Assembly: GCF_031412795.1 (NCBI RefSeq)
Contig: NZ_JANODR010000017.1
Span: 1 to 64,000 of the forward strand
DNA length: 64,000 nt
Source: Archangium sp.
Lineage (GTDB): Bacteria; Myxococcota; Myxococcia; Myxococcales; Myxococcaceae
Reading direction: 5' to 3'
Shown in pieces: positions 968 to 59,478 of this stretch (within the stretch, counting starts at the first letter, position 1; every line of letters starts with the position of its first letter). Under the pieces are notes generated by a model. It worked only from the letters and a program-made list of their open reading frames with translations. It made no database searches and was not told the DNA's origin. The position numbers were made by a program, and so were the translations under genes.

Positions 968-3739
<2,772 letters not shown>

Positions 3740-3742
3740 TCA

Positions 3743-3815
3743 CACAGTGGTTGCCCTCTTTCCATTGTTGGATAAAGAGGGACTCTCCGCCCGGGTGATT
3801 TCCCCCGGGCTTTCG
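3743..3815 (+). terminator. Two tandem hairpins after the kinase stop (CCCTCTTT-N12-AAAGAGGG; GCCCGGG-N8-CCCGGGC)
   Basis: Inverted repeats seen in sequence. No T-run, so function uncertain. Confidence 0.3.
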
Positions 3816-3834
3816 TTTTCCAAGGTGGATCGCC

Positions 3835-5205
3835 ATGACGACTCCCATCCGCGGCAAAGCCTCCTCGGCCGGCCCCGCGCAGCAGCCTTTTTCCTATCCG
3901 CTCCGCCGTGAGTTCGTGGAGCCCGACTGGAGGCGTCTGCCTGGCTTCAAGGACGTGACCCAGGCCGAGTGGGAGAGCTCCGTCTGGCAGCGCAAGCACA
4001 CCGTCAAGAACCTCAAGGAGCTCAAGGCCGTCCTCGGCGACCTCCTCCCCGAGGACCTCCTGGCCAGCATGGACCGCGATCAGCGCGAGCGCGCCACCAT
4101 GTCCATCCTCGTCCCGCCCCAGATGCTCAACACCCTGGACGAGACGGACCTGTGGAACGACCCCGTCCGCCGCTACATGCTCCCGGCCTTCGAGGACCGG
4201 CACCCCGAGTGGCCCAACCACCCCAAGGCCAGCCGCGACAGCCTCCACGAGGCCGAGATGTGGGCCGTCGAGGGGCTCACCCACCGCTACCCCACCAAGG
4301 TGCTGGCGGAGATGCTCCCCACCTGCCCCCAGTACTGCGGCCACTGCACCCGCATGGACCTCGTGGGCAATGACGTTCCCCAGGTCCAGAAGCACCGCTT
4401 CCAGCTCGGCCAGAAGGAGCGCTACGAGGCGATGCTCGACTACCTTCGCAAGACGCCCACCGTGCGAGACGTGGTCGTCAGCGGCGGCGACATCGCCAAT
4501 CTCCCCATCCAGGCCCTCGAGCCCTTCGTCAGCGCCCTGCTCGACATCCCCAACATCCGCGACATCCGCCTGGCCTCCAAGGGCCTCATGGCCATCCCCC
4601 AGCACTTCCTCCAGGACTCCGTCCTCCAGGGGCTGGAGCGGCTCGCCAAGAAGGCCAATGAGCGCGGCGTGGACCTCGCCCTCCACACCCACGTCAACAA
4701 CGCCCGTCAGCTCACGCCCCTCGTCGGCAAGGCCGTTCGCAAGCTGCTCGACATGGGCTTCCGCGACGTGCGCAACCAGGGTGTGCTGCTCCGCGGCATC
4801 AACGACACCCCCAAGGATCTCCTCGAGCTGTGCTTCACCCTGCTCGATCACGCGAAGATCCTCCCGTACTACTTCTACATGTGCGACATGATCCCCAACG
4901 CGGAGCACTGGCGCCTGTCCGTTGCCGAGGCCCAGCAGCTCCAGCACGACATCATGGGGTACATGCCCGGCTTCGCCACCCCGCGCATCGTCTGCGACGT
5001 GCCCTTCGTCGGGAAGCGGTGGATCCACCAGATCTCCGAGTACGACAAGGAGCGGGGCATCTCGTACTGGACCAAGAACTACCGCACCGGCATCGAGGGC
5101 AATGACCCCGACGCCCTCACCCGCAAGTACGAGTACTTCGACCCCATCTACACGCTGCCCGCGTCCGGTCAACAGTGGTGGCGCGATCAGGCCAAGGCGG
5201 CGTGA
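3835..5205 (+). CDS. KamA-family radical SAM 2,3-aminomutase-like protein (paralog 1, divergent cluster motif CPQYCGHCTRM)
   Basis: 456 aa. CxxxCxxC radical-SAM cluster motif in a KamA-like context, GGD motif (VVVSGGDIANLP). Stop overlaps the next start (ATGA). Confidence 0.8.
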   Translation: MTTPIRGKASSAGPAQQPFSYPLRREFVEPDWRRLPGFKDVTQAEWESSVWQRKHTVKNLKELKAVLGDLLPEDLLASMDRDQRERATMSILVPPQMLNTLDETDLWNDPVRRYMLPAFEDRHPEWPNHPKASRDSLHEAEMWAVEGLTHRYPTKVLAEMLPTCPQYCGHCTRMDLVGNDVPQVQKHRFQLGQKERYEAMLDYLRKTPTVRDVVVSGGDIANLPIQALEPFVSALLDIPNIRDIRLASKGLMAIPQHFLQDSVLQGLERLAKKANERGVDLALHTHVNNARQLTPLVGKAVRKLLDMGFRDVRNQGVLLRGINDTPKDLLELCFTLLDHAKILPYYFYMCDMIPNAEHWRLSVAEAQQLQHDIMGYMPGFATPRIVCDVPFVGKRWIHQISEYDKERGISYWTKNYRTGIEGNDPDALTRKYEYFDPIYTLPASGQQWWRDQAKAA

Positions 5206-6416
5206 TGCAGTCCCCAGTACCGCCCTCCAAGGGCGCTGCCTCGCGTCCGGCCTCCGAGGCCGGGCGCCGGGTCCTTTTCCCCGACGCCACCGACGCCGAG
5301 TGGGCTGACTGGCGCTGGCACCAGCGCCATGCCGTGCGCGGCCTCGCGCAGCTGGAGAAGTACGTCCCCCTCACGCCCGAGGAGCGCGCCGGCGTGCAGG
5401 AGACCTCCTCCCTCTTCCGCATCGGCATCAGCCCCTACTACCTGTCCCTCATCGACAGGCAGCACCCGTTCTGCCCCATCCGCATGCAGTCCATCCCCGT
5501 GCGCGCCGAGGCTCGCATCCGCCCCGGGGAGCTCGAGGACCCGCTCGGCGAGGACAAGACCCGGCCCGAGGAGGCCATCGTCCACAAGTACCCGGACCGC
5601 GTCCTCTTCCTCGCGCTCGACACGTGCTCCGTCTACTGCCGCCACTGCACCCGCCGCCGCATCACCAAGGGCGGCGAGGCCGAGCTCACCAAGGAGCAGA
5701 TGCGGCGGGGTCTCGACTACATCCGCCGTCACCCCGAGGTCCGTGACGTCCTCATCTCCGGTGGAGATCCGTTCCTCCTCTCCGAGGAGCGGCTGGAGGA
5801 GCTGCTCGCGCCCCTGCACGAGATTCCCCACGTGGAGATGGTCCGCATCGGCACCCGCGTCCCCGTGTGTCTGCCCATGCGTGTCACCGACTCGCTGGCC
5901 CGGCTGCTGCGCCGCTACGCCCCCGTCTACGTCGTCACCCACTTCAACCACCCGAAGGAAGTGACCCCCGAGGCCCGCGAGGCCTGCGAGCGGCTCGTGG
6001 ACCACGGCGTCCCCGTCGAGAACCAGGCCGTCCTCATGCGCCAGCTCAACTCGGACGCTCGCATCATCAAGGAGCTGTCCCACGCCCTGCTGCGCATCCG
6101 CGTCCGCCCCTACTACCTCCACCAGATGGATGTGGCTCAGGGCTGCGAGCACCTGCGCACGCCCCTCTCCAAGGGCATGGAGATCCTCCAGCAGCTGCGC
6201 GGCCATACCTCCGGGCTCGCCGTGCCTCACCTCGCCGTGGACCTCCCCGGCGGCGGTGGCAAGGTGACCCTCCAGCCGGATTACGTGCTCGAGCGCCACG
6301 AGCGCGGCACCGTGTTCCGCAACTTCAAGGGCGAGCGCTACTCCTACCCCGAGCCCGAAGAGACCGACTGCTCCTGCCCCTATGACTCCGAGTGGCAGGC
6401 CAGGCGCTGGGGGTAA
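5205..6416 (+). CDS. kamA: Lysine 2,3-aminomutase (canonical KamA-type; CSVYCRHCTRRR motif)
   Basis: Motif CSVYCRHCTRRRI matches the LAM signature CxxxCRHCTRRR. ISGGDPFLL PLP/GGD region. C-terminal Cys cluster (CSCPYD). Start ATG overlaps the stop of the upstream paralog. Confidence 0.7.
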   Translation: MQSPVPPSKGAASRPASEAGRRVLFPDATDAEWADWRWHQRHAVRGLAQLEKYVPLTPEERAGVQETSSLFRIGISPYYLSLIDRQHPFCPIRMQSIPVRAEARIRPGELEDPLGEDKTRPEEAIVHKYPDRVLFLALDTCSVYCRHCTRRRITKGGEAELTKEQMRRGLDYIRRHPEVRDVLISGGDPFLLSEERLEELLAPLHEIPHVEMVRIGTRVPVCLPMRVTDSLARLLRRYAPVYVVTHFNHPKEVTPEAREACERLVDHGVPVENQAVLMRQLNSDARIIKELSHALLRIRVRPYYLHQMDVAQGCEHLRTPLSKGMEILQQLRGHTSGLAVPHLAVDLPGGGGKVTLQPDYVLERHERGTVFRNFKGERYSYPEPEETDCSCPYDSEWQARRWG

Positions 6417-6425
6417 GGCAGGGGC

Positions 6426-6935
6426 TCATTCCCCCTCGGGCGCGGGGATTTGCTCTTCCGGCGGGATGCCGACCTCCACCGTCGGCTCCGCTCCCTCCTG
6501 CTCCTCCAGCGTCACCGGGTTGTCCTCGCCGAACCCCGCCTGGACCTGGATCTCCCCCGGCTCCTTCTTCGTCTTCGCGGCCTCCGCCGCCTGCTGCTTG
6601 TCCTGCTCCTCCAGGCGCTTGGACGCGGCCTCCACCGCCTCGTTCCCCTTCGGCCCCATCTTCGCCGTCTGCCGCGCGTAGTCCTTGCCGGACACGCCGT
6701 TCTTCTCCAGCGCCTCCTGCACCGCCTTCTGCTGCTCCTGGATGACCTGCCGCCTCTCCGCGTTGCTCATCTCCGACGGCTTCCGGTTTCCGTGCGCCGC
6801 GTTCACTCGATCCAGCGCCTCCTTCTCGTCTCGGCGCACTCGCGCGATCTGATCGGGCGTGAGTTCCCCCGCGAACCCGAGGCCCGGCAGGGTGAGACAG
6901 AGCGACAGCAACAGCAGGGATGGACGGCGGAACAT
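6426..6935 (-). CDS. Secreted hypothetical protein (signal peptide, charged helical; possible periplasmic stress/Spy-like)
   Basis: Start chosen at MFRRPSLLLLSLCLTLPGLGFA (signal peptide) rather than the upstream ORF start. Lys/Glu/Gln-rich. Confidence 0.5.
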   Translation of the reverse strand: MFRRPSLLLLSLCLTLPGLGFAGELTPDQIARVRRDEKEALDRVNAAHGNRKPSEMSNAERRQVIQEQQKAVQEALEKNGVSGKDYARQTAKMGPKGNEAVEAASKRLEEQDKQQAAEAAKTKKEPGEIQVQAGFGEDNPVTLEEQEGAEPTVEVGIPPEEQIPAPEGE

Positions 6936-7018
6936 GGGCACTCCTGGGTAGACCCTCTCCATCGTATGGGAGACAGGGGCACCGTGGGGAGAGGGGAGAG
7001 GGGCGTGTGCTGGTGGGC

Positions 7019-7345
7019 TCAGCGGGTACGACACCGCGTGCAGTTGTCCGTCCCCTCCGCGCAGGACTCCCTCGCCTGCGCGCACCGGGAGGGCAGGTCC
7101 GGCCGGTCCTCGTGCTGGCTCACCACCGCACACAACTCCTCTGCTACCGCACACGTCTGCTGGGTCAGCGTGCATCCCTCCTCGCACGAGATGCCCCTCA
7201 TCGATGCCCGGGACCTCAGTTCTTCCAGCCTCGCCTCGTAAAGGGCGAGCACTTCGTCATCCGTGCCGGCCACCCGGGTGTTGTCCACCTGCTTCGGACA
7301 TCCCATGAGCACCAGCGTCAGCAGGGCAAGCAGGGTTGCGCGCAT
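7019..7345 (-). CDS. Small Cys-rich lipoprotein
   Basis: Lipobox LVLMGC at N-terminus; 10 Cys in 108 aa. Confidence 0.5.
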   Translation of the reverse strand: MRATLLALLTLVLMGCPKQVDNTRVAGTDDEVLALYEARLEELRSRASMRGISCEEGCTLTQQTCAVAEELCAVVSQHEDRPDLPSRCAQARESCAEGTDNCTRCRTR

Positions 7346-7387
7346 GTCTCTCCCCTTATGCGCTGGCGCTCGGCTCGTCCAGCCGCC

Positions 7388-7948
7388 TCAGCGTCCTCTC
7401 GACCTCTCCTGGACAGGTCGCTCCCGCGGCTCCTCGGCCCGGTTGCAGTACAGGAACGCCGTCAGTCCCAGCAGCGCCACCACCGCCAGCTTTCGCAGCC
7501 AGTCCTCCCGCCGGCTCCTCGGGGACTGCTCCTCCTCGCGCTCCGCTGCCTCGAGCGTCTCCGCCACCTCCGTCCCCAACTGTCGCAGTCTCCTGCACAG
7601 CGCCACTGGCGTCGTCAGCGCCGCCGGCACCGTCGCCGTCTCCCGCTCCAGCGCCTCCGCCAGCGCTCGTGCCCACACGTCCTCCTCCGCTTCGTCCGCC
7701 GGAGGTCGGCAGGGCAGGGCCGCCGCCGTCGTCAGCTCCAGCGCCGCCCTCAGCAGGTGCACCGAGAAGGCCGCCGGGGTGATGCCGTAGAACGTCGCGC
7801 TCCCCTCCAGTGAGCGGCCCCGCACCAGCCGCCCCACCAGCAAGGCCGACTGGCGGTAGGGCAGGGCTCGCAGCGCCGCTCCGAGCTCGGCGGCCGAGAG
7901 ACGGGTGACGTCAGGGGCAGGGGACACGGGGCCCTCATTCTCCGCCAT
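7388..7948 (-). CDS. Hypothetical membrane-anchored protein with sigma-70 region-4-like HTH
   Basis: Segment LPYRQSALLVGRLVRGRSLEGSATFYGITPAAFSVHLLRA resembles ECF sigma region 4. C-terminal TM helix (LAVVALLGLTAFLY). Start moved to MAENEG (7948) to avoid a divergent overlap with the SpoIID start. Confidence 0.4.
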   Translation of the reverse strand: MAENEGPVSPAPDVTRLSAAELGAALRALPYRQSALLVGRLVRGRSLEGSATFYGITPAAFSVHLLRAALELTTAAALPCRPPADEAEEDVWARALAEALERETATVPAALTTPVALCRRLRQLGTEVAETLEAAEREEEQSPRSRREDWLRKLAVVALLGLTAFLYCNRAEEPRERPVQERSRGR

Positions 7949-7970
7949 TCGCCCGCCGATTTCTTGAGCC

Positions 7971-9098
7971 ATGAGCACCACCCCCTACACTCCGCTCACC
8001 ATGTGGCGACCTGTTGCACTCCTGCTGCTCCTGCTCGCGCCCCTCCCAGCGTTCGCCGTGGAGACGATGCGCATCGCCATGGGTGACTCCCACGGCCAGG
8101 TGCGCGTCGCCGGCTCGGCCCTCTCCTTCGGCCCCGATACCGAGGACGCCCGCTTCTCTCCGCTCGCCCAGGACAGCGTCGTCGTGCGGCGTCGTGGCGC
8201 TCGGCTGGAGCTCAACGGCGCCCCCGTCATCGGCAACGCGGTGCGCTTCCGCGCCGGCCAGGACTCCGAGGTGCCCGGCTCCTCGCCCCTGCGCGCCGGG
8301 GACATGCAGGTCCGCGGTGACGTCGTCGTTCGCCTCTACAAGGATGGGCTCCAGCTCATCAACGTCATCCCCCTCGAGGACTACCTCGCCGCCGTGCTCG
8401 GCAGCGAGATGCCCGTTTCCTTCCCCCTGGAGGCCCTCAAGGCCCAGGCCGTCGCCGCTCGCACCTACGCCCTCCAGAAGAAGCTCGAGACCTACGGCAG
8501 CCCCTTCCACATGGGCAGCAGCGTTCTCCACCAGGTCTACGGCGGCCTCAACCGCGAGGACGCCCGCACCCGCTCCGCCGTCGAGGCCACCCGGGGCGAG
8601 GTGCTCACCTACGAGCTCGCCCCCATCGAGGCCTACTTCCACGCCTCCTGCGGCGGTCGCACCGAGTCCGGCCAGGATGCCCTCGGGCGGAACCTTCCCT
8701 ACCTCCAGGCCGTGGACTGCCCGTGCGGCCGGCTGCCCGCCAGTCGCTGGAGCGCCACCCTCTCCAACTCCGAGCTGCACTCCGCCCTCGGCCAGTCCAC
8801 CGAGGGCTTCCGCGTCTCCTCCCGCACCGACACCCACCGGGTGAACCGCATCGCCACCGCCAGCGGCCTCTCGGTGGATGGGGTGACGCTTCGCCGGAAG
8901 CTCGGCTACACGAAGCTCAAGAGCCTCGGCTTCGACGTGGAGCGCACCTCCAGCGGTTGGCACTTCAACGGCCGCGGCTACGGCCACGGCGCCGGCCTCT
9001 GCCAGTGGGGCGCCAAGGCGCTCGCCGACGAGGGCCTCGCCTACCGCGACATCCTCCAGCACTACTACCCGGGGACCGAGCTCCAGCAGCTCTACTGA
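7971..9098 (+). CDS. SpoIID/LytB domain protein (secreted)
   Basis: Signal peptide. SpoIID-family motifs (VIPLEDYLAAVLGSEMP, ALKAQAVAARTYAL, FHASCGGRTESG). Confidence 0.85.
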   Translation: MSTTPYTPLTMWRPVALLLLLLAPLPAFAVETMRIAMGDSHGQVRVAGSALSFGPDTEDARFSPLAQDSVVVRRRGARLELNGAPVIGNAVRFRAGQDSEVPGSSPLRAGDMQVRGDVVVRLYKDGLQLINVIPLEDYLAAVLGSEMPVSFPLEALKAQAVAARTYALQKKLETYGSPFHMGSSVLHQVYGGLNREDARTRSAVEATRGEVLTYELAPIEAYFHASCGGRTESGQDALGRNLPYLQAVDCPCGRLPASRWSATLSNSELHSALGQSTEGFRVSSRTDTHRVNRIATASGLSVDGVTLRRKLGYTKLKSLGFDVERTSSGWHFNGRGYGHGAGLCQWGAKALADEGLAYRDILQHYYPGTELQQLY

Positions 9099-9146
9099 CG
9101 CATCCCGTTTCGCCGGGGCGCCCGGGCTGTTACAAGCCCTTCCCCC

Positions 9147-10232
9147 GTGTCGTCACTGCTCTCCGATTACGACTTCGAGCTCCCCGAGGCGCAGATCGCC
9201 CAGGCGCCCCTCGGCGCCCGCGATGCCTCCCGCCTCCTCGTGGTGAGCCGCTCCTCCGGTGCCCCGGAGCACCGCCACTTCGCCGACCTGCCCGGCCTGC
9301 TGCGCGAGGGCGACCTGCTCGTCGTCAACGACGCGCGGGTCATCCCCGCACGGCTCCTCGGCGCCAAGGTCGGCTCCGGCGGCCGAGTGGAGTTGCTCGT
9401 CGTCCGCCCGGCGGCCCCCACGCTCACCTCCCAGGCGCTCGGCGGAGCCACCGAGGCGCTCGAGTGGATCTGCCTCGGGCAGGCCTCCAAGGGGCTCAAG
9501 CCCGGGGCGCGCATCGCCTTCCCCGAGGGTCTGGAGGCCGAGGTGCTGGAGGCTCTCGGAGGCGGGGAGTACCGCGTCCGCTTCCACGCCGCGCCGGGCA
9601 CCTCCCTTGCGGAGCTGCTGGACAAGGCCGGTCGCCTGCCGCTGCCGCCCTACATCACCCGCGCCCCCGAGGCCTCGGACGCCGAGCGCTACCAGACGGT
9701 GTACGCACGGGCCTCGGGCGCGGTGGCGGCCCCCACCGCCGGGCTCCACTTCACCGATGCCACCTTCGCGGCCCTCGCCGCCAAGGGCATCCAGCGCGTC
9801 GAGGTGACGCTGGACGTGGGGCCGGGCACCTTCCTCCCCGTGCGCGAGGAGAACCTCGAGAAGCACCACATGCACCCGGAGCGCTACTTCGTCCCGGAGG
9901 CCACCGCCCGGGCCGTCAACGCCGCTCGGGCCGAGGGCCGCCGCATCGTCGCGGTGGGCACCACCGTGGTGCGCACCCTGGAGTCCGCCACGGACCCGGA
10001 CTCGCGCCACCTGCGTGCCGGTACCGGCGAGACGACGCTCTTCATCCGCCCCGGCTTCACCTTCCGGCAGGTGGACGTGCTGCTCACCAACTTCCACCTT
10101 CCGCGCTCCACGCTGGTGGTGCTGGTGAGCGCGCTGCTCGGCCGCGAGCGCACCCTCGCGGCCTACCGGGAGGCAGTCGCCGCCGGCTACCGGTTTTTCT
10201 CGTACGGCGACGCGATGTTGGTGACGGAGTAG
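9147..10232 (+). CDS. queA: S-adenosylmethionine:tRNA ribosyltransferase-isomerase
   Basis: N-terminus DYDFELPEAQIAQAPLGARDASRLLVV is the typical QueA opening. Length 361 aa. Conserved queA-tgt-yajC-secDF order. Confidence 0.9.
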   Translation: MSSLLSDYDFELPEAQIAQAPLGARDASRLLVVSRSSGAPEHRHFADLPGLLREGDLLVVNDARVIPARLLGAKVGSGGRVELLVVRPAAPTLTSQALGGATEALEWICLGQASKGLKPGARIAFPEGLEAEVLEALGGGEYRVRFHAAPGTSLAELLDKAGRLPLPPYITRAPEASDAERYQTVYARASGAVAAPTAGLHFTDATFAALAAKGIQRVEVTLDVGPGTFLPVREENLEKHHMHPERYFVPEATARAVNAARAEGRRIVAVGTTVVRTLESATDPDSRHLRAGTGETTLFIRPGFTFRQVDVLLTNFHLPRSTLVVLVSALLGRERTLAAYREAVAAGYRFFSYGDAMLVTE

Positions 10233-11432
<1,200 letters not shown>

Positions 11433-11606
11433 GAGGCCCGGAGGAGGGGGGGCGAGCACGATAAAGGACGGGAAGTCCGGGTCTTCCTCGCCGTTCTCTT
11501 GCCCGGGGTGCGTGGCCCCTGCTAAGAGGCCCCCCTTTGCGGTGCGTCAGTTGTCCGCTGGTGGACGGCGGCGCGGTCGGACCCTCTCTAAACGACGAGG
11601 CGGTTT

Positions 11607-11951
11607 GTGGCAGACAGCTTTCTGATCCTGGCTCAGGCGGCGGGCGGCGGCCCTGGCGGCGCGGTGAACATCCTGTTCATCGTCGCCCTGTTCGCCATCA
11701 TGTACTTCATGATGATCCGCCCCCAGCAGAAGCAGATGAAGGCGCACAAGGAGCTGCTCGCCGGGTTGAAGAAGGGTGACGAGGTCCTCACCCAGGGCGG
11801 GCTCATCGGGCGCATCCAGGTGATCACCGAGCGGGAAGTGACGCTCGAGGTCTCCAATGGGGTACGCATCCGCGTGCTCAAGACTTCCGTGGCAGGCAGG
11901 TATGCGGTGGGCCCCGAGGCCCCTGCTGCCGAGAAGAAGGAGGAGAAGTAA
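11607..11951 (+). CDS. yajC: Preprotein translocase subunit YajC
   Basis: Single TM, MMIRPQQKQ motif, 114 aa, directly upstream of secD. Confidence 0.85.
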   Translation: MADSFLILAQAAGGGPGGAVNILFIVALFAIMYFMMIRPQQKQMKAHKELLAGLKKGDEVLTQGGLIGRIQVITEREVTLEVSNGVRIRVLKTSVAGRYAVGPEAPAAEKKEEK

Positions 11952-13723
11952 TGGATCGCGGCTGGTACTGGAGGATGGGCCTGGTCATTGGCGTGACGCT
12001 GCTGACCATTTGGTTCCTGATCCCCTCCTATTATTCGCTCTTCGTGATGGAGCGCAGTGAGCGCAACAACCTGACGCTGCTCGAGCAGCGGATGCCCAGG
12101 TGGGCTCCCCCCGCGAAGTACCGCATCAACCTGGGGCTGGACCTGCAGGGCGGCATCCACATGGTGATGCGGGTGGACACCAAGACGGCGCTCCAGAAGC
12201 GCACCGAGCGTCGTGGTGACCAGATTGCCCGCTACATCAACGAGGACAAGAAGCTCGGCGAGGTGGCCGTGGACACGGACCCCGAGGCGCTGCGGCTCTC
12301 GCTGACCGCCAAGGATCCGGCCACCATGGACGCCATCGAGAAGGAGGTGCTCGCCACCTTCACCGACTTCGTCCGGGTGTCGCGTGACGGGCCCAAGCTG
12401 GTGCTCGCCCCGGACGAGGGCCAGGTGAACCGCTTCCGCGAGGAGTCGGTGGACCAGGCGATGCTCGTCATCCGCCGCCGCATCGACAAGTGGGGCGTGG
12501 CCGAGGTGGACGTGCGCAAGCTGGGCACCGACGCCATCCAGATCTCCCTGCCGGGCCGCAGCGACCCGGAGCAGGCCAAGGAGCTGGTGGGCACCACGGC
12601 GCAGCTGGAGTTCCGCATGGTGGACGACACCACGGACTTCTTCCGGCAGACGTACCAGACGACGCCGCCGCCCGAGGGCAGCAACATCACCCTGGACAGC
12701 GCCGAGGGCTTCCCCCAGCTGGTGGGCCCGGACCGCGAGGCCCTGCTGTCCTACGTGCAGGACAAGACGCCCGCGGATCGCCAGGTGCTGCTGGAGTGCA
12801 TCCCCAGCGCCACCCGCAAGGGCGTGTGCGACAGCTACCGCAGCTACCTGGTGGAGAAGAACGTGCCGCTCACGGGTGAGAGCCTGACGGGCGCGGACGC
12901 CAGCCTCAGCCAGCTCAACGAGCCCGAGGTGAACGTCAGCTTCGACGCCGCGGGCGCGCGCCAGTTCGAGGAGCTCACCGACAAGGGCACGGGCCGGCGC
13001 ATGGCCATCGTGCTGGACGAGTACGTGCAGTCGGCCCCGCGCATCAACGAGCGCATCGGGGGGGGCCGGGCGCGCATCACCATGGGCCGCTCCGGTGGCC
13101 GTCCGCTGGAGCAGTGGCTGGCCGACGCGCAGACGCTGGCGCTGGCCCTCAAGGCCGGCGCGCTGCCGGCGCCGGTGACCACGGGTGAAATCCGTCAGGT
13201 GGGCGCCTCGCTGGGCGACGAGCTCATCCGCAAGGGCAGCCTGGCGGCGATCGTCGGCCTGGCGCTCGTCATCGTCTTCATGGCCATCTACTACAAGGGC
13301 GCGGGCCTCATCGCCGACGTGGCGCTGGTGCTCAACGGCCTGCTCATCCTCGCCGGCCTGGCGCTCTTCAACGCCACGCTCACCCTGCCGGGCATCGCGG
13401 GCTTCGCGCTGACCCTGGGGGTCGCGGTGGACGCCAACGTGCTCATCAACGAGCGCATCCGCGAGGAGCTCGGCCATGGGAAGACCGCGAAGACCGCGGT
13501 GGACCAGGGCTACGACCGGGCCTTCTGGACCATCTTCGACGCCCACGTCACCGCGCTCATCGCCGGCTTCATCCTCTTCTTCACGGGGACGGGCCCGGTG
13601 CGCGGCTTCGCCACCACGATGATCATCGGCCTGCTGGCGTCGCTCTTCACGTCCATTCTCGTGACGCGCGTGATCATGAACTACTTCGTCCACGGCCGTG
13701 ACGCCAAGACGGTGTCCGTCTAG
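11951..13723 (+). CDS. secD: Protein translocase subunit SecD
   Basis: 590 aa. N-terminal TM then large periplasmic domain. C-terminal 5-TM SSD region. ATGG overlap with yajC stop. Confidence 0.9.
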   Translation: MDRGWYWRMGLVIGVTLLTIWFLIPSYYSLFVMERSERNNLTLLEQRMPRWAPPAKYRINLGLDLQGGIHMVMRVDTKTALQKRTERRGDQIARYINEDKKLGEVAVDTDPEALRLSLTAKDPATMDAIEKEVLATFTDFVRVSRDGPKLVLAPDEGQVNRFREESVDQAMLVIRRRIDKWGVAEVDVRKLGTDAIQISLPGRSDPEQAKELVGTTAQLEFRMVDDTTDFFRQTYQTTPPPEGSNITLDSAEGFPQLVGPDREALLSYVQDKTPADRQVLLECIPSATRKGVCDSYRSYLVEKNVPLTGESLTGADASLSQLNEPEVNVSFDAAGARQFEELTDKGTGRRMAIVLDEYVQSAPRINERIGGGRARITMGRSGGRPLEQWLADAQTLALALKAGALPAPVTTGEIRQVGASLGDELIRKGSLAAIVGLALVIVFMAIYYKGAGLIADVALVLNGLLILAGLALFNATLTLPGIAGFALTLGVAVDANVLINERIREELGHGKTAKTAVDQGYDRAFWTIFDAHVTALIAGFILFFTGTGPVRGFATTMIIGLLASLFTSILVTRVIMNYFVHGRDAKTVSV

Positions 13724-13743
13724 TAGCCCCCGGGGAAAAGCAG

Positions 13744-27870: not shown

Positions 27871-28896
27871 TCACGGGAAGGTCACGTTGCCGAGGGTGAC
27901 GACACGCTTTCCGCTCTCGTCCCACAGCTTCAAGGTGAAGGGGCCTCGGGCTTCCCGGGCCGTCAGCTCCGTCTCCACCACGACCACTCCCGGCCGCTTT
28001 GGGTTGGGTGGGATGGGTGAGGGCTGCCAGATGAGCCTGAGCGGCTTCACCTCCTGATTCTTCCCCACCAGCACCGCACCGTTGACCGTCCAGGGCAGCA
28101 TGCCCGGGTTCGTCAGCTCCACCGCCACGGCCACCCGCACCACGTCCACCACACGTGTGGTGAAGCGATAGCTGATGGCCTTGTGGAGGCCGAGGGCGTT
28201 GCTCGGGGCCTTGATGACGCTCCTCTCGATGTCCTCGGCCTTCGTACTCTGGTCGCCCACGACCAGCGCCCCGCTGTCAATCAGCCCCGCGATACCGCCC
28301 GGCCCCTGCTCCAACCGCATCCGCTCCAACTCCTGGCCGAGCCGCCGGGACTTCTCGCGCTCCTCCTGGAGTTCCTTCTGGTAGTCCTCCACGGTGCGCT
28401 TGTGGCGGTACACGTCCACCTGCCGTGCCCCGAGCGCGGGGTGGCCCACCAGTTCGAAGGTGGCGCCCGTCGGAGCCGCACCATCCGCGAAGCGGACCGT
28501 CACCTTGAACCGCTCGCCGGGTTGAAGGTCCGCTGGGGGGAGGATGCTGAAGCTCCGCTTCCCGGGCGCCACGTCCTCGAAACGCTCAGGCTGCTGTAGC
28601 TCCAGCGAGCCCGGCACCAGCAATGAATCGAAGCGGAAGGTGGTGGACAGCTCCGGGCTGATGCACACCGCCTGCGGCTTGCCGGTGGGTTCCGCTGGCA
28701 GCTCCAGTCGGGACGAGGACGCTTCGCAGTCCGGCGGATGCGGCTGGGCGGTGGCGCCGGCCCCCGCGAAGAGCACCAGCGACAGGAGAGCGGCGGGAGA
28801 CAAGACGGACACGGAGTGGAGACCTCTCGCAAGGGGAATGAAACCGCGAACGTGGTCTCTACTACACCTTCCTCTCGGGTAGGGCGTGGCCCCCAT
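27871..28896 (-). CDS. DUF2381 (TIGR02268-like) family secreted protein, kinase-associated
   Basis: Signal peptide. Family-typical architecture with a coiled-coil (KELQEEREKSRRLGQELERMRLEQ) between beta-rich halves. Lies immediately downstream of a Ser/Thr kinase. Confidence 0.65.
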   Translation of the reverse strand: MGATPYPRGRCSRDHVRGFIPLARGLHSVSVLSPAALLSLVLFAGAGATAQPHPPDCEASSSRLELPAEPTGKPQAVCISPELSTTFRFDSLLVPGSLELQQPERFEDVAPGKRSFSILPPADLQPGERFKVTVRFADGAAPTGATFELVGHPALGARQVDVYRHKRTVEDYQKELQEEREKSRRLGQELERMRLEQGPGGIAGLIDSGALVVGDQSTKAEDIERSVIKAPSNALGLHKAISYRFTTRVVDVVRVAVAVELTNPGMLPWTVNGAVLVGKNQEVKPLRLIWQPSPIPPNPKRPGVVVVETELTAREARGPFTLKLWDESGKRVVTLGNVTFP

Positions 28897-28930
28897 TCAG
28901 GGTGCGGCCCGCTCCATCCCCGGGCCGGTC

Positions 28931-30775
28931 CTACTCGAAGCGGTCCACCACCTTCACATTCGGGGAGGAGTGAATCTTGACGGTCTCCTTCCCGGAGCCG
29001 GGCTCCATTTCAGCTCCGCGCTTGCTCTCCTGCCACATCTCCAGGCAGACCTTGTACGTGTCACCTTGGGGCGTCCGGGCCTCGGTGAAGCGGCCATGGA
29101 CCCGACCTTCCCCGAAGAGGAGACGCCCCTGGAGGAGGGTGCCCTCCGGCAGCTTCCCCCACGGGCCCAGAATCTCCACCGAGGTGAAGCCCTCGCGTAC
29201 GGGGATTCGCTGAGGCTCCATGTCGAGGGGGAGAAATTCGATGCCATGCGTCCAATCGATGCGGATGCCGAGCGTGTTGGTCATGGTCTCGACGGCCCCC
29301 GCCGGGCACGGCTCTGGCTCGGGGGTGGTGCGCACCTGGGCACCGGGACAGGCCGTGTTGGCGGCGGCGGCGGCACCGAGACACCACTTCGCCATGGGTG
29401 AGAGGGTCCCCTTCTGCTTCGTGTCCCCCTGGGGGTTGGGGGCCTGCGGCTTCTTCAAGGCGTCGTCCTTGGGTCGCGTCACCAGCGAGGCGACGACCGC
29501 GGGGGGTTGCTTCGCCGGGGGCGGAGCTGCGGCTCGTTCAGCTTCCGGCGGCGGCCACGCGGGCGCCACTTCCTGGCCCGGAAGCAAGCTCAACGTCGGG
29601 GAGGGGGGAGACGACGCCAGGGGTGGGGGCTGTGGCGTGGGCTTCCACCGCTGCGCGAGCCACCACCCGGCCAGGGCAACACCCACCAGCACGGTCATCC
29701 ACACCAACGCACGGCGGAGCGCCTGGAGCGCCATGTCCCGCAGGGGCAGGTCGGCCACCGTGGCCGGGGTCGGTTTCGCCGGAGCGGGCTCCACCGGTGG
29801 CGCGGCGGCCTCGGGCTTCTTCTTCCGTGCCGCGGCCCCCCGGCGGCCTCTCCTCGGTACACGGGGGCCTTCATGCAGCGGCACCCGCCAGGAAGCATCC
29901 GCACGGGCCAGCAGGTGCGTCAGCTCCTTCCCCAGCTCCAAGACACTCGGGTAACGCTTCTCCGGCGTCTTCTCCAGCAGCCTCATGCACACGTCACTCA
30001 CCACCAGCGGCACGTGGGGGTTGACGATGTGCGGCGGCAGCGGCTCCTTGTGGATGACGGCCTTCACCGAGGCCTCGTCATCCCATGCCACCTCGAAGGG
30101 GAAACGATGGGTGAGCAGCCGGTAGAGCACCACGCCCAGGGCATATTGGTCATCCGCCTTCCCGGGCCGGTAGGTGACTCGCCGCTCGTTCCAGTGCTCC
30201 AGGCCGAAGCGCCACGCCTCGGGGCTGCGGTAGTGGGGCGTCCCCGGGGGGAACATGCCCTCGGTGATGGTGGCCTGTCCCTCACGCTTGGCGGACCCGA
30301 AGTCCAACAGCACCGGCTCGCCATCCTCGTCGCGCACGACGATGTTGGCTTCCTTCACGTCCCGGTGGACGACATTCTCGTCATGCACCACGGCCAGCCC
30401 CCGCACCACCCCCACCATCTTGCCCACCACGGCCAGCGTGTCGGGGTTCTCTTCCCAGGCCCACACGTCGAGCGGACGGCCCTCGACGTAGAGCATCTTC
30501 AAGCAGAAGAACTCGGGCAGCACGGGCGGCCAGTAGCTGAAGCCCACCTGCCGCACGAGGTTCTTGTGCTGGAAGGACATGGCGAGGGTGCCCTCGCGCT
30601 CGGCCCACTGCCTGGCCCGGTGGAGCGGGACGAACTTGAGGGCCAACAGGGTGCCACTCAGCTTGTCCCGTGCCCGGTACACGGTGCCGTAGCCCCCTCT
30701 ATCCACCAGCTCTTCGATGATCGCGCCGTTGACGCTCGTGCCGGGCGGCAGGTCCGGCGTGTCTCGCTCGCTCAT
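28931..30775 (-). CDS. Ser/Thr protein kinase with TM segment and C-terminal extracytoplasmic domain
   Basis: GGYGTVYRARD, ALK, HRDVKEANIVV, DFGSAK. TM (LVWMTVLVGVALAGWWL). Pro-rich linker. Confidence 0.9.
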   Translation of the reverse strand: MSERDTPDLPPGTSVNGAIIEELVDRGGYGTVYRARDKLSGTLLALKFVPLHRARQWAEREGTLAMSFQHKNLVRQVGFSYWPPVLPEFFCLKMLYVEGRPLDVWAWEENPDTLAVVGKMVGVVRGLAVVHDENVVHRDVKEANIVVRDEDGEPVLLDFGSAKREGQATITEGMFPPGTPHYRSPEAWRFGLEHWNERRVTYRPGKADDQYALGVVLYRLLTHRFPFEVAWDDEASVKAVIHKEPLPPHIVNPHVPLVVSDVCMRLLEKTPEKRYPSVLELGKELTHLLARADASWRVPLHEGPRVPRRGRRGAAARKKKPEAAAPPVEPAPAKPTPATVADLPLRDMALQALRRALVWMTVLVGVALAGWWLAQRWKPTPQPPPLASSPPSPTLSLLPGQEVAPAWPPPEAERAAAPPPAKQPPAVVASLVTRPKDDALKKPQAPNPQGDTKQKGTLSPMAKWCLGAAAAANTACPGAQVRTTPEPEPCPAGAVETMTNTLGIRIDWTHGIEFLPLDMEPQRIPVREGFTSVEILGPWGKLPEGTLLQGRLLFGEGRVHGRFTEARTPQGDTYKVCLEMWQESKRGAEMEPGSGKETVKIHSSPNVKVVDRFE

Positions 30776-39234: not shown

Positions 39235-39553
39235 GTCGGAGGGCCCGGACGACGCGGAGTTCGACCCTGAAGCACCGGTGGAGCTTCCCGTGGATGGGAA
39301 CCTCGACCTGCACCTGTTCCACCCACGAGATGTGAAGGACGTGGTGACCGAGTACCTCTGGGCCTGCCGTCAGGAGGGTGTGCTCGAGGTTCGCATCATC
39401 CACGGCAAGGGCACGGGGGCCTTGAGGCGCACCGTGCAGTCCCTGCTCCCGAAGTTGCCCGAAGTGGAGTCGTTCCGCTCCGCCTCCGAGGCCGATGGCG
39501 GGTGGGGCGCCACCTGGGTCCAGCTGAAACCGCTGGAGCCTGGAGCGCGGTGA
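39221..39553 (+). CDS. Smr-domain protein
   Basis: [42 protein letters not shown] is the Smr domain core. GTG start in frame; an upstream start is not excluded. Confidence 0.65.
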
Positions 39554-40971
39554 GCGCGCAGCCGCACGGGCGGCGACTCCGGAGCGGGAAGAATCCAGCG
39601 CTTGGGCGCCACTCCCTCCTCCTCCCGGGCGAGGTCCACCTCCGGGTCCACGAAGAGCACCGCGGGCCGCCCGTTGAGCGACACCCGCGCGTCGGCCCGC
39701 ACCTCGACCGGACCCAGGCCCCTGGCCTCGAAGTCGCGCGCGATGCGGTGGGCGAGCTGCAGGATGAGGTCGGGCTGTACGGACATCTCCCGCTCCTGGA
39801 GGCGGGTGAGGTACTCCCGGGGAGACACGTGCCACTCCCTGCCGGTGGCCGGAGCGCGGACCACGAACGTGACGCTGCCGTTCTTCTCCCGCGCCATCAC
39901 CCGCCACGAGAAACGCATGCCCTGCTCGTGCCACAGGACGTTGCCGCCGTAGAGGTGCGCCCTCAGCGGGAGCAGCAGCTGCAGCAGCCCGTAGGCCACC
40001 GCCACCCCGAGCCCCATCCGCCCCTTCCAGCCCGGTGAGGCCCCACCGCCGGAGGACTCGGGCACCGGGAGTGGCTCGGGCCGCGGACGCCTCGTGACGA
40101 GCGCCCTCAGGCGCGCCACCAGCCGTCTTGGCCAGGAGGGCTCGAAGAAGGCCAGCGCCGCGGTGCTCATGATGACGGGGAACATGCCGATCGGAAACAG
40201 CACCGAGGTGGCCGCGTGGAAGCCCAGCACCGCCCCGTACGCGAACGGGCGCAGCCGGCGCACCAGCATGAAGGCGACGATGGTGGTGTCGAAGAGGAAG
40301 CCCGCCCAGGCCGCGCCGTACGCCACCCAGCGCTGCTCGAGCAGCGGGCCCACCAGCGGCAGGCTCGTGCGCGCCGACAGCCAGATGTGGAGCGGCTGGG
40401 CGTGCAGCAGCCAGTCGGAGGTGAGCTTCGCCAGCCCCGCGTTCACGTACACCACGGCCACCTGGAAGCGCAGCAGGTACGTGCACCACGCCGGCAGCCA
40501 GTCGCGGCGCAGTCCCGGCCTCCGCCACGCATCCACGGAGAAGGCCCCGTGCGCCGGGATGAAGAACAGGAGCCCCAGCAGCAGGCTCACCAGGTAGTAG
40601 TGGTTGAGGTAGTTGCTCACGTCCACGAGCTGCACGTACGTGAACGCGACGAAGAGCAGCGCCACCGTCAGCCGGTAGAAGAGGCCCACCGCCAGGAACA
40701 CGCCCAGCACTCCCACGGCCGCGAAGACGGCGTGCAGCCACGGCGCGGGCAGCGCGTGCACCCAGCCAAAACCCCAATACGTGAAGTGGAACGCGGGCCG
40801 GGCGAAGAGGCTGTCCACCCAGCCGAAGGCGAGCAGGCGCGCCATCGACACGGCCACCATCAACCCCAGCGCCACCCGGAAGAACACCAGCGCCGCGAGG
40901 TCCCGCGGCGCCAGCAGCCAGTCCCAGACGCGCCGGGGCGCTCGCGGCGCCACCTCAGTCGTTGTCCCCAT
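39370..40971 (-). CDS. HTTM-domain (vitamin K-dependent gamma-carboxylase-like) membrane protein
   Basis: N-terminal HTTM signature ([14 protein letters not shown]..., [30 protein letters not shown]). The 3' 184 nt overlap the convergent Smr gene and the tail is low-complexity, so the true stop is uncertain. Confidence 0.8.
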
Positions 40972-42175
40972 CCGTTCCCTCGGGCAGCTCCAGGTCCAGC
41001 ACGGTGACGAACTCCGTCTTGAGCACGTCCGTCACGCCCTTCACCGCGTCGTAGAGCGCGCGCATCGAGGCCTTGTCCTGGTCGAGCGCGTCGCGCAGGT
41101 CCGCCTCCTCGATGGCCGCGAGCGCCGCCTCGGCCGCCACCGCCCGCTCGCGCAGCTTCGTCGCGAGCGTCTCGGAGCCCACCGCCACCAGCACGTCGTC
41201 GAACCCCGTCCCCGCGTAGCCCGCGCCACAGCCCTCGGTCAGGCGCCGCAGGCCCACCAGGTTGGCGCGCAGGTTCGCCTTCGATCGCCCGGTGAAGGGC
41301 GACTCCAGCGCCTCCGGGCACGTGTCGCCCGCGCAGTCCCGGAGGCCGAGCGGCACCGCCAGCTTCTTGTCCTTCACCTCCGTCTCTACGTAGAAGAGGG
41401 CGTCGCTCAGCGCGTTGAGCGCGGCCTGCGTCGTGGGGAACACCGCGTTGCCCGTGCCAGCCGTCTCGAGCGTGCGCGAGAAGCCTCCCTTGTCCGTCTC
41501 CCACGCCTCCACGAGCCGCGCCGCGCGTCGGCGCACGTCGGCGGCCAGCACCGCGGCATAGGCCCGCTTGCGCGCCGCCAGCTCCTCGGCCGACAGCGCC
41601 GCCCACCCGCCCCCCGACACCACCGGAGAGCTCGCCGGGCACGCCGTGTCCCCCCCCTCGTGGAAGAGCAGGTACTCGAGCGGGAACAGCCCCCGCCGGT
41701 TCACCAGCGGAGCCGTCGGGAAGTCCGCCGACTCGTAGCCGCGCGAGACGAGCTGCTCCTCGACGGCGCAGCGGCTCACCAGCGGCCACGAGTAGATGTT
41801 GTCGCGCACGTCCGCGCCCCCGGGCAGGGCGCGCCGGGCCGCCGGCCCCACCTGCATCACCTCCACCACCTGCCAGGCCTCCATGGCCCGGTGGTACGCC
41901 GCGCGCGCGGCCTCGCGCGTACGGGCCTCGGGCCGGGCCGCCAGCGCCGCCACCGCCGTGTCCAGCTCCACCGCCGCGGCCTGGAACTCCCGCGCCGTCG
42001 TCAGCACGCACGCCCCGGCCGCACCCAGCAGCTCCGTGCGCGCCGTGGCCCCGGGCACCACCACCGGCGGCTTCGTCCCTCCCTCCCGGCACGCCGGCAG
42101 CAGCGTGAGGACGGCCAGCAGCAACATGCCCGCGGTGCGGCGGGCGGCTCTCGGATGGCTTCGCGTGTGCTCCAT
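40955..42175 (-). CDS. Imelysin-like (peptidase M75/IrpA-like) lipoprotein
   Basis: Lipobox LLPAC. Imelysin-like blocks (FPLEYLLFHEGG; ALNALSDALFYVETEVKDKKLAVPLG). 16-nt overlap with the downstream HTTM gene. Confidence 0.75.
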   Translation of the reverse strand: MEHTRSHPRAARRTAGMLLLAVLTLLPACREGGTKPPVVVPGATARTELLGAAGACVLTTAREFQAAAVELDTAVAALAARPEARTREAARAAYHRAMEAWQVVEVMQVGPAARRALPGGADVRDNIYSWPLVSRCAVEEQLVSRGYESADFPTAPLVNRRGLFPLEYLLFHEGGDTACPASSPVVSGGGWAALSAEELAARKRAYAAVLAADVRRRAARLVEAWETDKGGFSRTLETAGTGNAVFPTTQAALNALSDALFYVETEVKDKKLAVPLGLRDCAGDTCPEALESPFTGRSKANLRANLVGLRRLTEGCGAGYAGTGFDDVLVAVGSETLATKLRERAVAAEAALAAIEEADLRDALDQDKASMRALYDAVKGVTDVLKTEFVTVLDLELPEGTDGDND

Positions 42176-42278
42176 GCCTCGGCCCCTATCAGACGATTCT
42201 GAAAGTGACAACCATTCGCAAAATCGAGTCCGGCTTGACATTTCCAACTGTCCCAGTGTACCAAGCCGACCAAAATCT

Positions 42279-59467: not shown

Positions 59468-59478
59468 GGGGAGAGGAC

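Follow-up and report, generated by a model that had tools for sequence, protein, structure and literature searches.

The closest described systems to the locus analysed here are an operon of Myxococcus xanthus and several kinds of KamA-family enzyme. In M. xanthus, MXAN_4699 and MXAN_4698 form an operon in which both genes encode putative lysine 2,3-aminomutases, and the phenotype seen when both are disrupted is not obtained by disrupting MXAN_4698 only (bioRxiv 10.64898/2026.05.15.725110). Canonical enzymes of the family include the lysine 2,3-aminomutase (LAM, KamA) of Clostridium subterminale, with the solved structure 2A5H, and KamA/AblA of Bacillus. EpmB (YjeK) belongs to the same enzyme family; a passage in bioRxiv 10.64898/2026.07.07.736966, citing Behshad 2006, gives its product as (R)-beta-lysine and that of clostridial KamA as (S)-beta-lysine. 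Other relatives are LAM genes in Streptomyces clusters for beta-lysine antibiotics, with no second KamA gene beside them, and alpha-proteobacterial KamA genes of the TIGR03822 (AblA_like_2) type, which adjoin epmA and efp.

The window, a 64-kb stretch of Archangium DNA, contains two adjacent genes, here called P1 and P2 (Table 1), whose open reading frames and matches to 2A5H bear out a preliminary description of two neighbouring KamA-family radical-SAM genes, the upstream one of 456 aa. MXAN_4699 and MXAN_4698 represent their orthologues in another genus (84% and 83% identical, respectively), with the same gene order, 1-nt overlap and flanking genes. The P1–P2 pair is no new kind of system but a myxobacterial operon that is conserved and has been annotated before, and our analysis provides context for the MXAN_4699 mutations selected in M. 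xanthus under prey adaptation. We consider it rather likely that the operon encodes two independent lysine 2,3-aminomutase isozymes drawn from different KamA branches, with the sinks for their product located elsewhere in the genome.

Both reading frames carry a strong coding signal (GC3 of 0.95 for P1 and 0.93 for P2). Their junction reads gcgGTGATGcag, with an overlap of 1 nt (TGATG) in place of the ATGA overlap first described. If translation began instead at an in-frame GTG at 5202, the overlap would be 4 nt (GTGA); because the M. xanthus junction is TAATG and lacks the GTG, the ATG at 5205 is the likely start of P2. The overlap of -1 recurs in M. xanthus and in one metagenomic locus (L075). 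The GTG at 5175, listed as the start by the open-reading-frame program, is probably not the true one. P1 and P2 form a tight unit of two genes, probably with translational coupling.

Table 1. Features of the aminomutase locus, in positions of the window.
Feature	Position	Strand	Remarks
Leader hairpin 1, GCCCTCTTTCC...GGATAAAGAGGG	3754-3781	+	within the 95 nt that separate P1 from the kinase gene upstream of it
Terminator-like GC hairpin (3789-3810) with T-rich tail	3789-3820	+	consensus scan; ends ~15 nt short of the P1 ATG
Shine-Dalgarno-like AAGGTGGA	3822-3829	+	5 nt 5' of the P1 ATG; read off the sequence
P1	3835-5205	+	456 aa; KamA-family radical-SAM/PLP aminomutase gene
P1 [4Fe-4S] motif CPQYCGHC (C164, C168, C171)	4324-4347	+	columns invariant in alignments A1 and A3
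P1 PLP loop DVPFVGK	4996-5016	+	D388 = LAM Asp330, K394 = LAM Lys337
Coupling junction	5193-5207	+	Shine-Dalgarno-like AAGGCGG within the last P1 codons, then TGA 5203-5205 overlapping P2 ATG 5205-5207
P2	5205-6416	+	403 aa; KamA-family radical-SAM/PLP aminomutase gene
P2 [4Fe-4S] motif CSVYCRHC	5625-5648	+	sequence/alignment
P2 PLP loop DLPGGGGK	6240-6263	+	holds the Asp330 and Lys337 equivalents
Terminator-like hairpin with T-rich tail	6434-6457	+	directly past the P2 stop; consensus scan

By its sequence, P2 falls among the canonical lysine 2,3-aminomutases (EC 5.4.3.2) of the clostridial and Bacillus KamA/AblA type. It matches 2A5H with E=6e-128 and 49.5% identity, carries CSVYCRHCTRRR and, as the preliminary description had it, the canonical cluster motif; it shares with these enzymes the CxxxCRHCTRRR and SGGD motifs, Asp293, Asp330, the PGGGGK loop and the LAM_C domain, and Pfam assigns it Radical_SAM and LAM_C (PF12544, E=3e-21). 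It passes the cutoff of the general KamA model (TIGR00238, 346.0 bits against 199.2) and falls short of those of the AblA (TIGR03820, 475.1 against 525.4), EpmB (TIGR03821, 242.7 against 369.3), glutamate 2,3-aminomutase (TIGR04368, 415.9 against 650) and arginine 2,3-aminomutase (TIGR04468, 381.1 against 600) models, the AblA equivalog nonetheless being the best-scoring one. Unlike its clostridial and Bacillus counterparts, P2 has no ablB or kamDE neighbour, and unlike C. subterminale LAM it lacks Cys268, replaced by Asp, as well as one of the C-terminal zinc cysteines, so that only two of the latter are left of C268/C375/C377/C380, which we take to be the inter-subunit zinc site of LAM. The TIGR03822-type enzymes fall in the same superclade and are 39-41% identical to P2, but they are shorter and lack LAM_C, and P2 scores 315 on their model against a cutoff of 396.

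P1 matches 2A5H with E=6e-46 and 30% identity, and is 28.5% identical to P2. It has no Pfam match and stays below the cutoffs for KamA (182.7 bits against 199.2), AblA (184.4 against 525.4, still its best-scoring model) and EpmB (132.6 against 369.3). Its AF2 model (pLDDT 90.4) nevertheless finds 2A5H as the best fold match (E=7e-29, over 414 columns), and predicted fold and motifs place P1 in the KamA superfamily despite the TIGR00238 score. It has the fold and all catalytic positions of C. subterminale LAM, from which it differs by R130G, R135M and R136D, a shorter PLP loop and a C-terminal domain with a YxDP motif in place of LAM_C. The cluster motif, within residues 164-178 (CPQYCGHCTRMDLVG), is indeed divergent, with Gly at the position of LAM Arg130. 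The PLP loop is one residue shorter than DAPGGGGK of LAM, with D388, G393 and K394 invariant in alignment A3. The distinct N-terminal extension that had been described is present, but amounts to only ~29 aa relative to the clostridial enzyme, residues 1-13 being predicted as disordered; internal insertions and the different C-terminal domain account for the bulk of the extra length.

Among solved structures, LAM is the sole match of both proteins. Cys125/129/132, Arg134, SGGD, Tyr287/288, Asp293, Asp330 and Lys337 (LAM numbering) are kept in P1 and P2, and the CxxxCxxC motif, the SGGD SAM motif and the PLP lysine are also invariant across the P1-type sequences defined below. Loss of the SAM-binding residues or the PLP lysine had been named beforehand as the mark of a pseudo-enzyme; with the Cys triad, SGGD and the lysine all retained, neither P1 nor P2 is predicted to be one. 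For P1 in particular the idea is ruled out, with every catalytic position conserved and 72-94% identity across very different genomes. In the phylogenetic placement that the preliminary description had proposed, P2 groups with LAM at 90% support, and the P1-type clade is monophyletic (99% bootstrap) and lies in a different superclade from P2 and LAM. The tree and alignments thus make P1 a deep paralogue of P2, from a distinct, monophyletic and highly conserved subfamily.

Arg134, Asp293 and Asp330 (2A5H numbering), presumably the lysine-binding residues of LAM, are conserved in P1, in P2 and in every aligned P1-type sequence, and the two aspartates are, we assume, those expected for a cationic side chain. 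This bears on the suggestion that the two enzymes act on different substrates, P2 on lysine and P1 on, for example, arginine, ornithine, glutamate, D-lysine or beta-lysine. The P1-type enzymes do read TRMD where LAM has TRRR beside the substrate-carboxylate arginine, their PLP loop differs, and P1 lies under all curated family cutoffs. Set against these differences are the retained lysine-binding residues, the glutamate and arginine 2,3-aminomutase scores of P1, far under their cutoffs (127.5 against 650 and 139.1 against 600 bits), the beta-lysine-using contexts of P1-type genes, and EpmB, which also lacks the Gly-rich loop and acts on lysine. We therefore regard a split between lysine and glutamate or arginine, or any other such division, as improbable. 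The specificity of P1-type enzymes may still be shifted from that of LAM, given the consistent differences at Arg130 (Gly), Arg135/136 (Met/Asp), the PLP loop and the C-terminal domain.

How unusual is P1? We defined the P1-type subfamily, for which there is no dedicated curated model, as a monophyletic group whose proteins have Gly at 130 within an CPQYCGHCTRMD-type motif, a D-x-P-x-x-G-K loop of reduced length and YxDP as a C-terminal motif. This signature is common to members from Streptomyces globosus, Streptomyces sp. SAT1, Amycolatopsis and metagenomes, and P1 orthologues are 81-94% identical across many Myxococcaceae genera; there is nothing abnormal about the "divergent" upstream gene, which belongs to a lysine 2,3-aminomutase subfamily that is widespread and strongly conserved. 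The Streptomyces antibiotic-cluster LAM genes belong to it as well, but lie in biosynthetic clusters, whereas P1 stands next to a canonical LAM gene amid housekeeping synteny. On the S. globosus plasmid NZ_CP030864, a P1-type gene lies inside a streptothricin-type cluster (a single instance); its product is 62% identical to P1, with the same CPQYCGHCTRMDLV motif and a DVPxxGK loop. In another single instance (L073), a P1-type gene stands head-to-head with kamD-kamE-kdd, the neighbours scoring above the equivalog cutoffs of lysine 5,6-aminomutase alpha and beta and of 3,5-diaminohexanoate dehydrogenase. Further P1-type genes occur in ATP-grasp/PGM1-ligase clusters in Streptomyces and on one metagenomic contig. 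Members of the subfamily would thus serve as beta-lysine suppliers in other organisms.

Most P1-type genes stand by themselves: 68 of the 80 metagenomic loci are solitary, without a P2-type gene, and the only conserved functional neighbours of these solitary genes, Hsp20, LemA/TPM and an M28 peptidase, are uninformative. A P2-type neighbour is found in none of the 41 low-GC loci whose downstream sequence is long enough to judge, and most high-GC loci and the Streptomyces clusters lack one too. The P1–P2 tandem is confined to high-GC, Myxococcaceae-like contigs, where we count 10 metagenomic tandems in addition to that of M. xanthus. Their junctions mostly range from -1 to +16 nt (-4 in L103 and +48 in L102), the seven more divergent tandem loci having gaps of 8-16 nt. 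In two loci, L144 and L154, the P1-type and P2-type genes lie on opposite strands, 3.6-4 kb apart. None of the genes between or beside them in L144, L154, L124 and L130 is clearly tied to beta-lysine; these extra genes encode Ig-like surface proteins, an M50 peptidase, a HemG-like flavodoxin and an unclassified GNAT protein.

The stop/start overlap or very short gap across 12 tandem loci suggests stoichiometric co-expression, LAM is oligomeric, and neither P1, which lacks the zinc site altogether, nor P2 has a complete LAM zinc site; these features would suit an obligate hetero-oligomeric aminomutase built of both proteins, as had been proposed. Such a complex is, in our judgement, very improbable. 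P1-type genes do without a P2-type neighbour in all informative low-GC loci, most high-GC ones and the Streptomyces clusters, the two genes are separated and on opposite strands in L144 and L154, canonical LAMs work alone in Clostridium and Bacillus, and the single disruption of MXAN_4698 is unlike the double disruption. Under the isozyme reading that we favour, P1 and P2 would each be a radical-SAM, [4Fe-4S] and PLP enzyme, probably forming separate homo-oligomers and expected from sequence to convert L-lysine to beta-lysine. Against it speak the lack of an obvious benefit from two enzymes for one reaction in a single, tightly coupled operon, and the scores of P1 and P2, which stay below the KamA (182.7 against 199.2) and AblA (475 against 525) cutoffs, respectively.

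Where, then, would beta-lysine be consumed? Consistent with the preliminary description, no gene for EF-P, EpmA, AblB or lysine 5,6-aminomutase (KamDE) adjoins the pair, nor does any occur in the entire 64-kb window. The conclusion drawn from this, that the pair fits none of the known contexts, considered adjacency alone. Corallococcus (with a complete chromosome among its genomes), Myxococcus sp. CA023 and MAGs of Archangium carry an unlinked gene for EpmA, which scores 360-372 bits against a cutoff of 286.9 and passes both NCBIfam EpmA equivalog cutoffs; no KamA gene lies beside it in the related Myxococcaceae genomes, and in other Myxococcota the orthologous EpmA adjoins an efp gene encoding a VKPGKG loop. 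The M. xanthus annotation includes a lysine 5,6-aminomutase subunit. Known sinks for beta-lysine therefore exist, though not adjacent to the operon. We propose that beta-lysine would pass to the unlinked EpmA for beta-lysylation of EF-P, a lysine 5,6-aminomutase catabolic route probably being the other consumer. EpmA-bearing myxobacteria show no obvious canonical EpmB beside EpmA, which makes their supply of beta-lysine for EF-P modification a matter that can be tested directly, with the P1–P2 operon as the prime candidate.

It is conceivable that the two enzymes are specialised by enantiomer or sink, one acting as a functional EpmB that supplies (R)-beta-lysine for EF-P through the unlinked EpmA, the other producing (S)-beta-lysine for catabolism or another use. 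The different products of EpmB and clostridial KamA are in keeping with this, as are the bona fide EpmA lacking a KamA neighbour in relatives, the sister clade of the P1-type (A2), which is translationally coupled to an EpmA-like ligase, a P1-type gene head-to-head with an EpmB-like KamA gene (L074), and the differing phenotypes of the M. xanthus mutants. Streptothricin contains (3S)-beta-lysine, which is also the substrate of lysine 5,6-aminomutase, and hence both P1-type contexts of known product imply this enantiomer; P2, for its part, falls in the tree with the clostridial enzyme that forms (S)-beta-lysine. Although EpmB is of the same family and the relatives' EpmA needs a beta-lysine source, P1 and P2 are longer than EpmB, lie below its equivalog cutoff and are not beside epmA or efp, so that of the earlier proviso, identity of one copy with EpmB and an EF-P/EpmA pair elsewhere, only an unlinked EpmA in relatives was found. 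We accordingly hold the specialised pair to be unlikely, if deserving of serious thought; that one aminomutase is the missing EpmB of Myxococcaceae for the unlinked EpmA, with the other feeding catabolism or a free beta-lysine pool, we likewise doubt, and slightly more so. A specialised pair would mean a single lysine-dependent operon behind both translation and metabolism, its one transcript co-regulating translation capacity and lysine catabolism, and either the P1-type subfamily or a LAM-type enzyme would represent a new class of EF-P modification enzyme.

P1-type genes within streptothricin-type and ATP-grasp/PGM1-ligase clusters lend some substance to the earlier thought that the operon might provide beta-lysine for building a myxobacterial natural product. 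That use holds for Streptomyces, but here the pair is set in a housekeeping neighbourhood (kinase, SpoIID, queA, tgt, yajC and secDF) whose synteny is conserved from the window to M. xanthus, the flanking genes examined (968-14925) show no sign of secondary-metabolite biosynthesis, genes for a P450, for an FMO-like oxidoreductase and for a methyltransferase being ~16 kb away, and identity of 81-94% across many Myxococcaceae genera is unlike typical strain-specific clusters. We think this role quite improbable for the present locus.

Since Rfam families have no match in 3400-7000, the leader of P1 holds no lysine riboswitch, and the consensus scan found no sigma-70 promoter. The hairpin at 3789-3820 is probably the terminator of the kinase gene, or possibly an attenuator; past P2, a convergent minus-strand gene ends at 6426, close to the second terminator-like hairpin. 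The RNA of 3738-3840 folds with -38.6 kcal/mol (z=-2.4), and leader hairpin 1 is kept in L075 and also in M. xanthus, with altered stem bases in the latter.

The two KamA-family genes, encoding P1 upstream and P2 downstream, are best explained as two independent lysine 2,3-aminomutase (LAM) isozymes that would be co-transcribed and whose beta-lysine would feed sinks encoded at unlinked loci. GC at third codon positions (0.95 for P1, 0.93 for P2) identifies both as genuine coding frames. The cluster motifs quoted in the preliminary description, CPQYCGHCTRMDLVG for P1 and CSVYCRHCTRRR for P2, are correct. Its observation of a coupled pair is real with one small correction: instead of an ATGA overlap, the junction reads GTGATG, in which the TGA stop (5203-5205) and the ATG (5205-5207) share a single base. 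Its interpretation was right only in part. An SD-like AAGGCGG lies within the final codons of P1. Myxococcus xanthus has the same gene order, flanking genes and 1-nt overlap, with TAATG at the equivalent position; tandem loci that are more divergent have gaps of 8-16 nt (n=7), -4 nt (n=1) or 48 nt (n=1). Conservation extends to the tight linkage of P1 and P2 but not to the precise overlap.

The 95-nt gap between the upstream kinase gene and P1 is filled by two hairpins, the first of which is preserved in M. xanthus with altered stem bases. The T-rich tail of the second, terminator-like one stops roughly 15 nt short of the P1 ATG; since this leaves no space for a promoter beyond it, the hairpin may serve as an attenuator or read-through control. 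No Rfam family, including the lysine riboswitch, matched 3400-7000. Given the kinase and leader on one side and the convergent gene and terminator-like hairpin on the other, P1-P2 forms a self-contained two-gene unit. EF-P, EpmA, AblB and lysine 5,6-aminomutase, already noted as missing next to the pair, were found nowhere in the 64-kb window, the remainder of which holds SpoIID, queA, tgt, secDF, recJ, aspS and miscellaneous genes.

Coordinates of features in the window and in comparison loci
Feature	Sequence	Position	Strand	Length
Ser/Thr kinase with PEGA domain, upstream of P1	window	968-3739		
Leader with two hairpins	window	3754-3820	+	
Second leader hairpin, terminator-like, T-rich tail	window	3789-3810		
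P1 ORF	window	3835-5205	+	456 aa
P2 ORF, conserved ATG to end of stop	window	5205-6416	+	403 aa
Convergent gene downstream of the pair	window	ends 6426	-	
Terminator-like hairpin downstream of P2	window	6434-6447		
Vault protein homologue	window	17417-19738	-	773 aa
DUF2381 protein gene adjoining a second Ser/Thr kinase	window	27871-30775	-	
HTTM protein and imelysin genes	window	39370-42247	-	
HEAT repeats-cyclophilin fusion	window	52783-54906	+	707 aa
Ord-like gene and following genes	window	58451-62581	+	
P1-type cluster, Streptomyces sp. SAT1	L155, plasmid NZ_CP016083	736022-749969		
P1-type cluster, metagenomic	L072	1533-8410		
P1-type gene with EpmB-like KamA	L074	4356-6857		
A2 KamA with EpmA-like ligase, uncultured bacterium	L003	8001-10384		
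A2 KamA with EpmA-like ligase, uncultured bacterium	L004	1337-3572		

P2 contains Radical_SAM and LAM_C domains and matches 2A5H, the solved LAM of C. subterminale, at 49.5% identity (E=6e-128). Its top NCBIfam model is AblA (475 bits, below the cutoff of 525), and its closest annotated relatives in a plasmid collection are LAM/AblA proteins of Fusobacterium, Bacillus/Cytobacillus and Acetoanaerobium (46-49% identity). P1 is far more diverged, with 30% identity to LAM and 28.5% to P2; it matches no Pfam domain and scores 182.7 with TIGR00238, slightly below the cutoff of 199.2. Its confident AF2 model (pLDDT 90.4, pTM 0.88) matches 2A5H across 414 columns (E=7e-29), and all other radical-SAM structures align to it in the core barrel only.

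Is P1 an active enzyme, and does it use the same substrate as P2? Cys125/129/132, Arg134, SGGD, Tyr287/288/290, Asp293, Asp330 and Lys337 (2A5H numbering) are retained in P1 and in every one of its relatives; we take the functional roles of these positions to be those described in the 2A5H literature. These proteins consistently carry R130 as Gly, R135 as Met and R136 as Asp, and lack the zinc-site cysteines; the PLP loop of P1's subfamily (P1-type) has one residue fewer than that of LAM (DVPFVGK in P1, DAPGGGGK in LAM). EpmB, a proven enzyme, likewise has no glycine-rich loop, so these changes are no sign of a dead enzyme, a possibility that the retained catalytic positions also rule out at the sequence level. 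Two observations disfavour the proposal that P1 and P2 use different substrates: the residues that bind lysine are conserved, and P1-type genes occur in beta-lysine contexts.

On a Streptomyces globosus plasmid (NZ_CP030864), a P1-type gene 62% identical to P1, with the same CPQYCGHCTRMDLV motif, lies among vioC- and vioD-like genes, a carbamoyltransferase, stand-alone adenylation and condensation domains, a PIG-L deacetylase and a glycosyltransferase. This gene set is that of a streptothricin-type cluster; streptothricin contains beta-lysine. In Streptomyces sp. SAT1 and in L072, a metagenomic locus, P1-type genes accompany ATP-grasp or PGM1-type ligases along with a class-I tRNA-ligase-like gene and an MFS transporter, seemingly as part of an uncharacterised cluster that makes a beta-lysine peptide. 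The SAT1 cluster additionally has a PGM1-type peptide ligase, a SidA-type N-hydroxylase and a GNAT. Supply of a natural-product building block, suggested in the preliminary description, is a real role for P1-type enzymes in Streptomyces, but is not supported here because the Archangium locus lies in conserved housekeeping synteny. In locus L073, the gene for a protein 72% identical to P1 is head-to-head with genes for lysine 5,6-aminomutase alpha and beta (717 and 333 against NCBIfam equivalog cutoffs of 600 and 280) and L-erythro-3,5-diaminohexanoate dehydrogenase (251 against 200).

Cluster representatives were searched exhaustively and the hits aligned, which divided the relatives of P1 into three groups: P1-type proper (53-80% identity to P1, including named Amycolatopsis and Kineosporiaceae proteins), a sister clade A2 (33-38%, Asp293 replaced by Glu) and a broader group B, whose motif is CPxYCRFCTRSY and whose PGGGGK loop is normal. 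Orthologues 81-94% identical to P1 occur in Myxococcus, Corallococcus, Pyxidicoccus, Stigmatella, Hyalangium, Archangium and Cystobacter. In a neighbour-joining tree with 100 bootstraps, support was 99% for P1-type monophyly, 92% for P1-type with A2, 90% for LAM with P2, and 100% for a superclade that unites LAM and P2 with the alpha-proteobacterial TIGR03822 type and EpmB. Placement in separate supported clades marks P1 and P2 as ancient paralogues, not recent duplicates.

The preliminary description also raised a hetero-oligomeric aminomutase. An obligate P1-P2 complex is made less likely by where P1-type genes occur, as in 80 metagenomic loci (72-93% identity; 44 at GC 0.54-0.61 and 36 high-GC). 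A second KamA gene was present in none of the 44 (41 with enough downstream sequence to judge); the tandem occurs in 10 of the 36 high-GC loci, and two others have a P2-type gene on the opposite strand, 3.6-4 kb away. P1-type genes are also solitary in L071, L005 and the P0127 locus, the L071 copy lying beside an AsnC-type regulator. In the 80 loci, conserved neighbours of the solitary genes were uninformative, and kamDE, kdd, EpmA and EF-P were absent within reach throughout. The solitary genes of L081, L083, L084, L092, L127 and about 40 other loci belong to the GC 0.54-0.61 lineage, from soil metagenomes; their 75-80% identity to P1 of GC 0.67 myxobacteria, across very different genomes, reflects either unusually high conservation or horizontal transfer. 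In L074, a gene 68% identical to P1 is head-to-head with a 338-aa EpmB-like KamA (CSMNCRYCFRKS motif, DDPSERFK loop), a second, independent pairing with another KamA paralogue.

M. xanthus genetics likewise speaks against an obligate complex. MXAN_4699, at 456 aa the same length as P1, and MXAN_4698 are described as an operon, each with a lysine 2,3-aminomutase annotation; MXAN_4699 mutations arose in two populations that had adapted to B. subtilis prey, and an MXAN_4699 insertion polar on MXAN_4698 strongly reduced evolved swarming (10.64898/2026.05.15.725110). An insertion in MXAN_4698 only left swarming on B. subtilis undiminished, with partial effects on some other prey, and both mutants were viable (10.64898/2026.05.15.725110). 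These differing phenotypes argue against a complex that needs both subunits for one activity.

Where would beta-lysine from two independent isozymes go? Scanning species-representative genomes with Myxococcaceae EpmA recovered orthologues (67-77% identity) in several Corallococcus, including the complete C. exercitus chromosome, Myxococcus sp. CA023 and Archangium MAGs. These pass both EpmA equivalog cutoffs (e.g., 360-372 bits versus 286.9), and neither KamA nor efp lies within 6 kb of their genes, for which pgi-epmA-ppa is the usual arrangement. In Haliangium and other Myxococcota MAGs, orthologous epmA adjoins an efp with a lysine-type VKPGKG loop. Members of the Myxococcota are listed under the lysine-EpmAB EF-P type (Brewer and Wagner 2024, PMC11388002), and MXAN_4388 is tabulated as subunit alpha of a D-lysine 5,6-aminomutase (PMC5131308). 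Myxococcaceae therefore possess known outlets for beta-lysine, unlinked to the aminomutase genes. EpmA prefers (R)-beta-lysine, the product of EpmB, and clostridial KamA yields (S)-beta-lysine (10.64898/2026.07.07.736966, citing Behshad 2006). For P1-type genes, those contexts whose product is known imply (S)-beta-lysine, and P2 groups in the tree with the (S)-forming clostridial enzyme. One of three options must therefore hold: P1 or P2 has switched stereochemistry, EpmA of this group takes (S)-beta-lysine, or these genomes contain a third KamA gene.

In two independent contigs, an A2 KamA gene is translationally coupled to a divergent EpmA-like ligase gene (231-246 bits versus a cutoff of 286.9), whose start it overlaps, and the two may constitute a variant EF-P modification module. 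Close relatives of this ligase (L067, L069) have no KamA neighbour. Some 52 kb away from P1-P2, a gene for a distant 2,4-diaminopentanoate dehydrogenase homologue (Ord model, 214 bits versus a cutoff of 400) precedes those for HadA/HadB-like dehydratases and a 624-aa acyl-CoA dehydrogenase; together they may form a diamino-acid catabolic operon.

P1 and P2 are ordinary members of known enzyme kinds, and the M. xanthus pair had already been annotated and noted; a modest residual interest attaches to the uncharacterised P1-type subfamily and to the source of beta-lysine for myxobacterial EF-P modification. Elsewhere in the window, the bacterial homologue of the eukaryotic major vault protein matched no NCBIfam model and has Vault repeats 1-4 and an MVP shoulder domain (E=1e-44). 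The HTTM membrane protein resembles vitamin-K-dependent gamma-carboxylase, lumenal domain included, and its gene adjoins that of the imelysin (Peptidase_M75).
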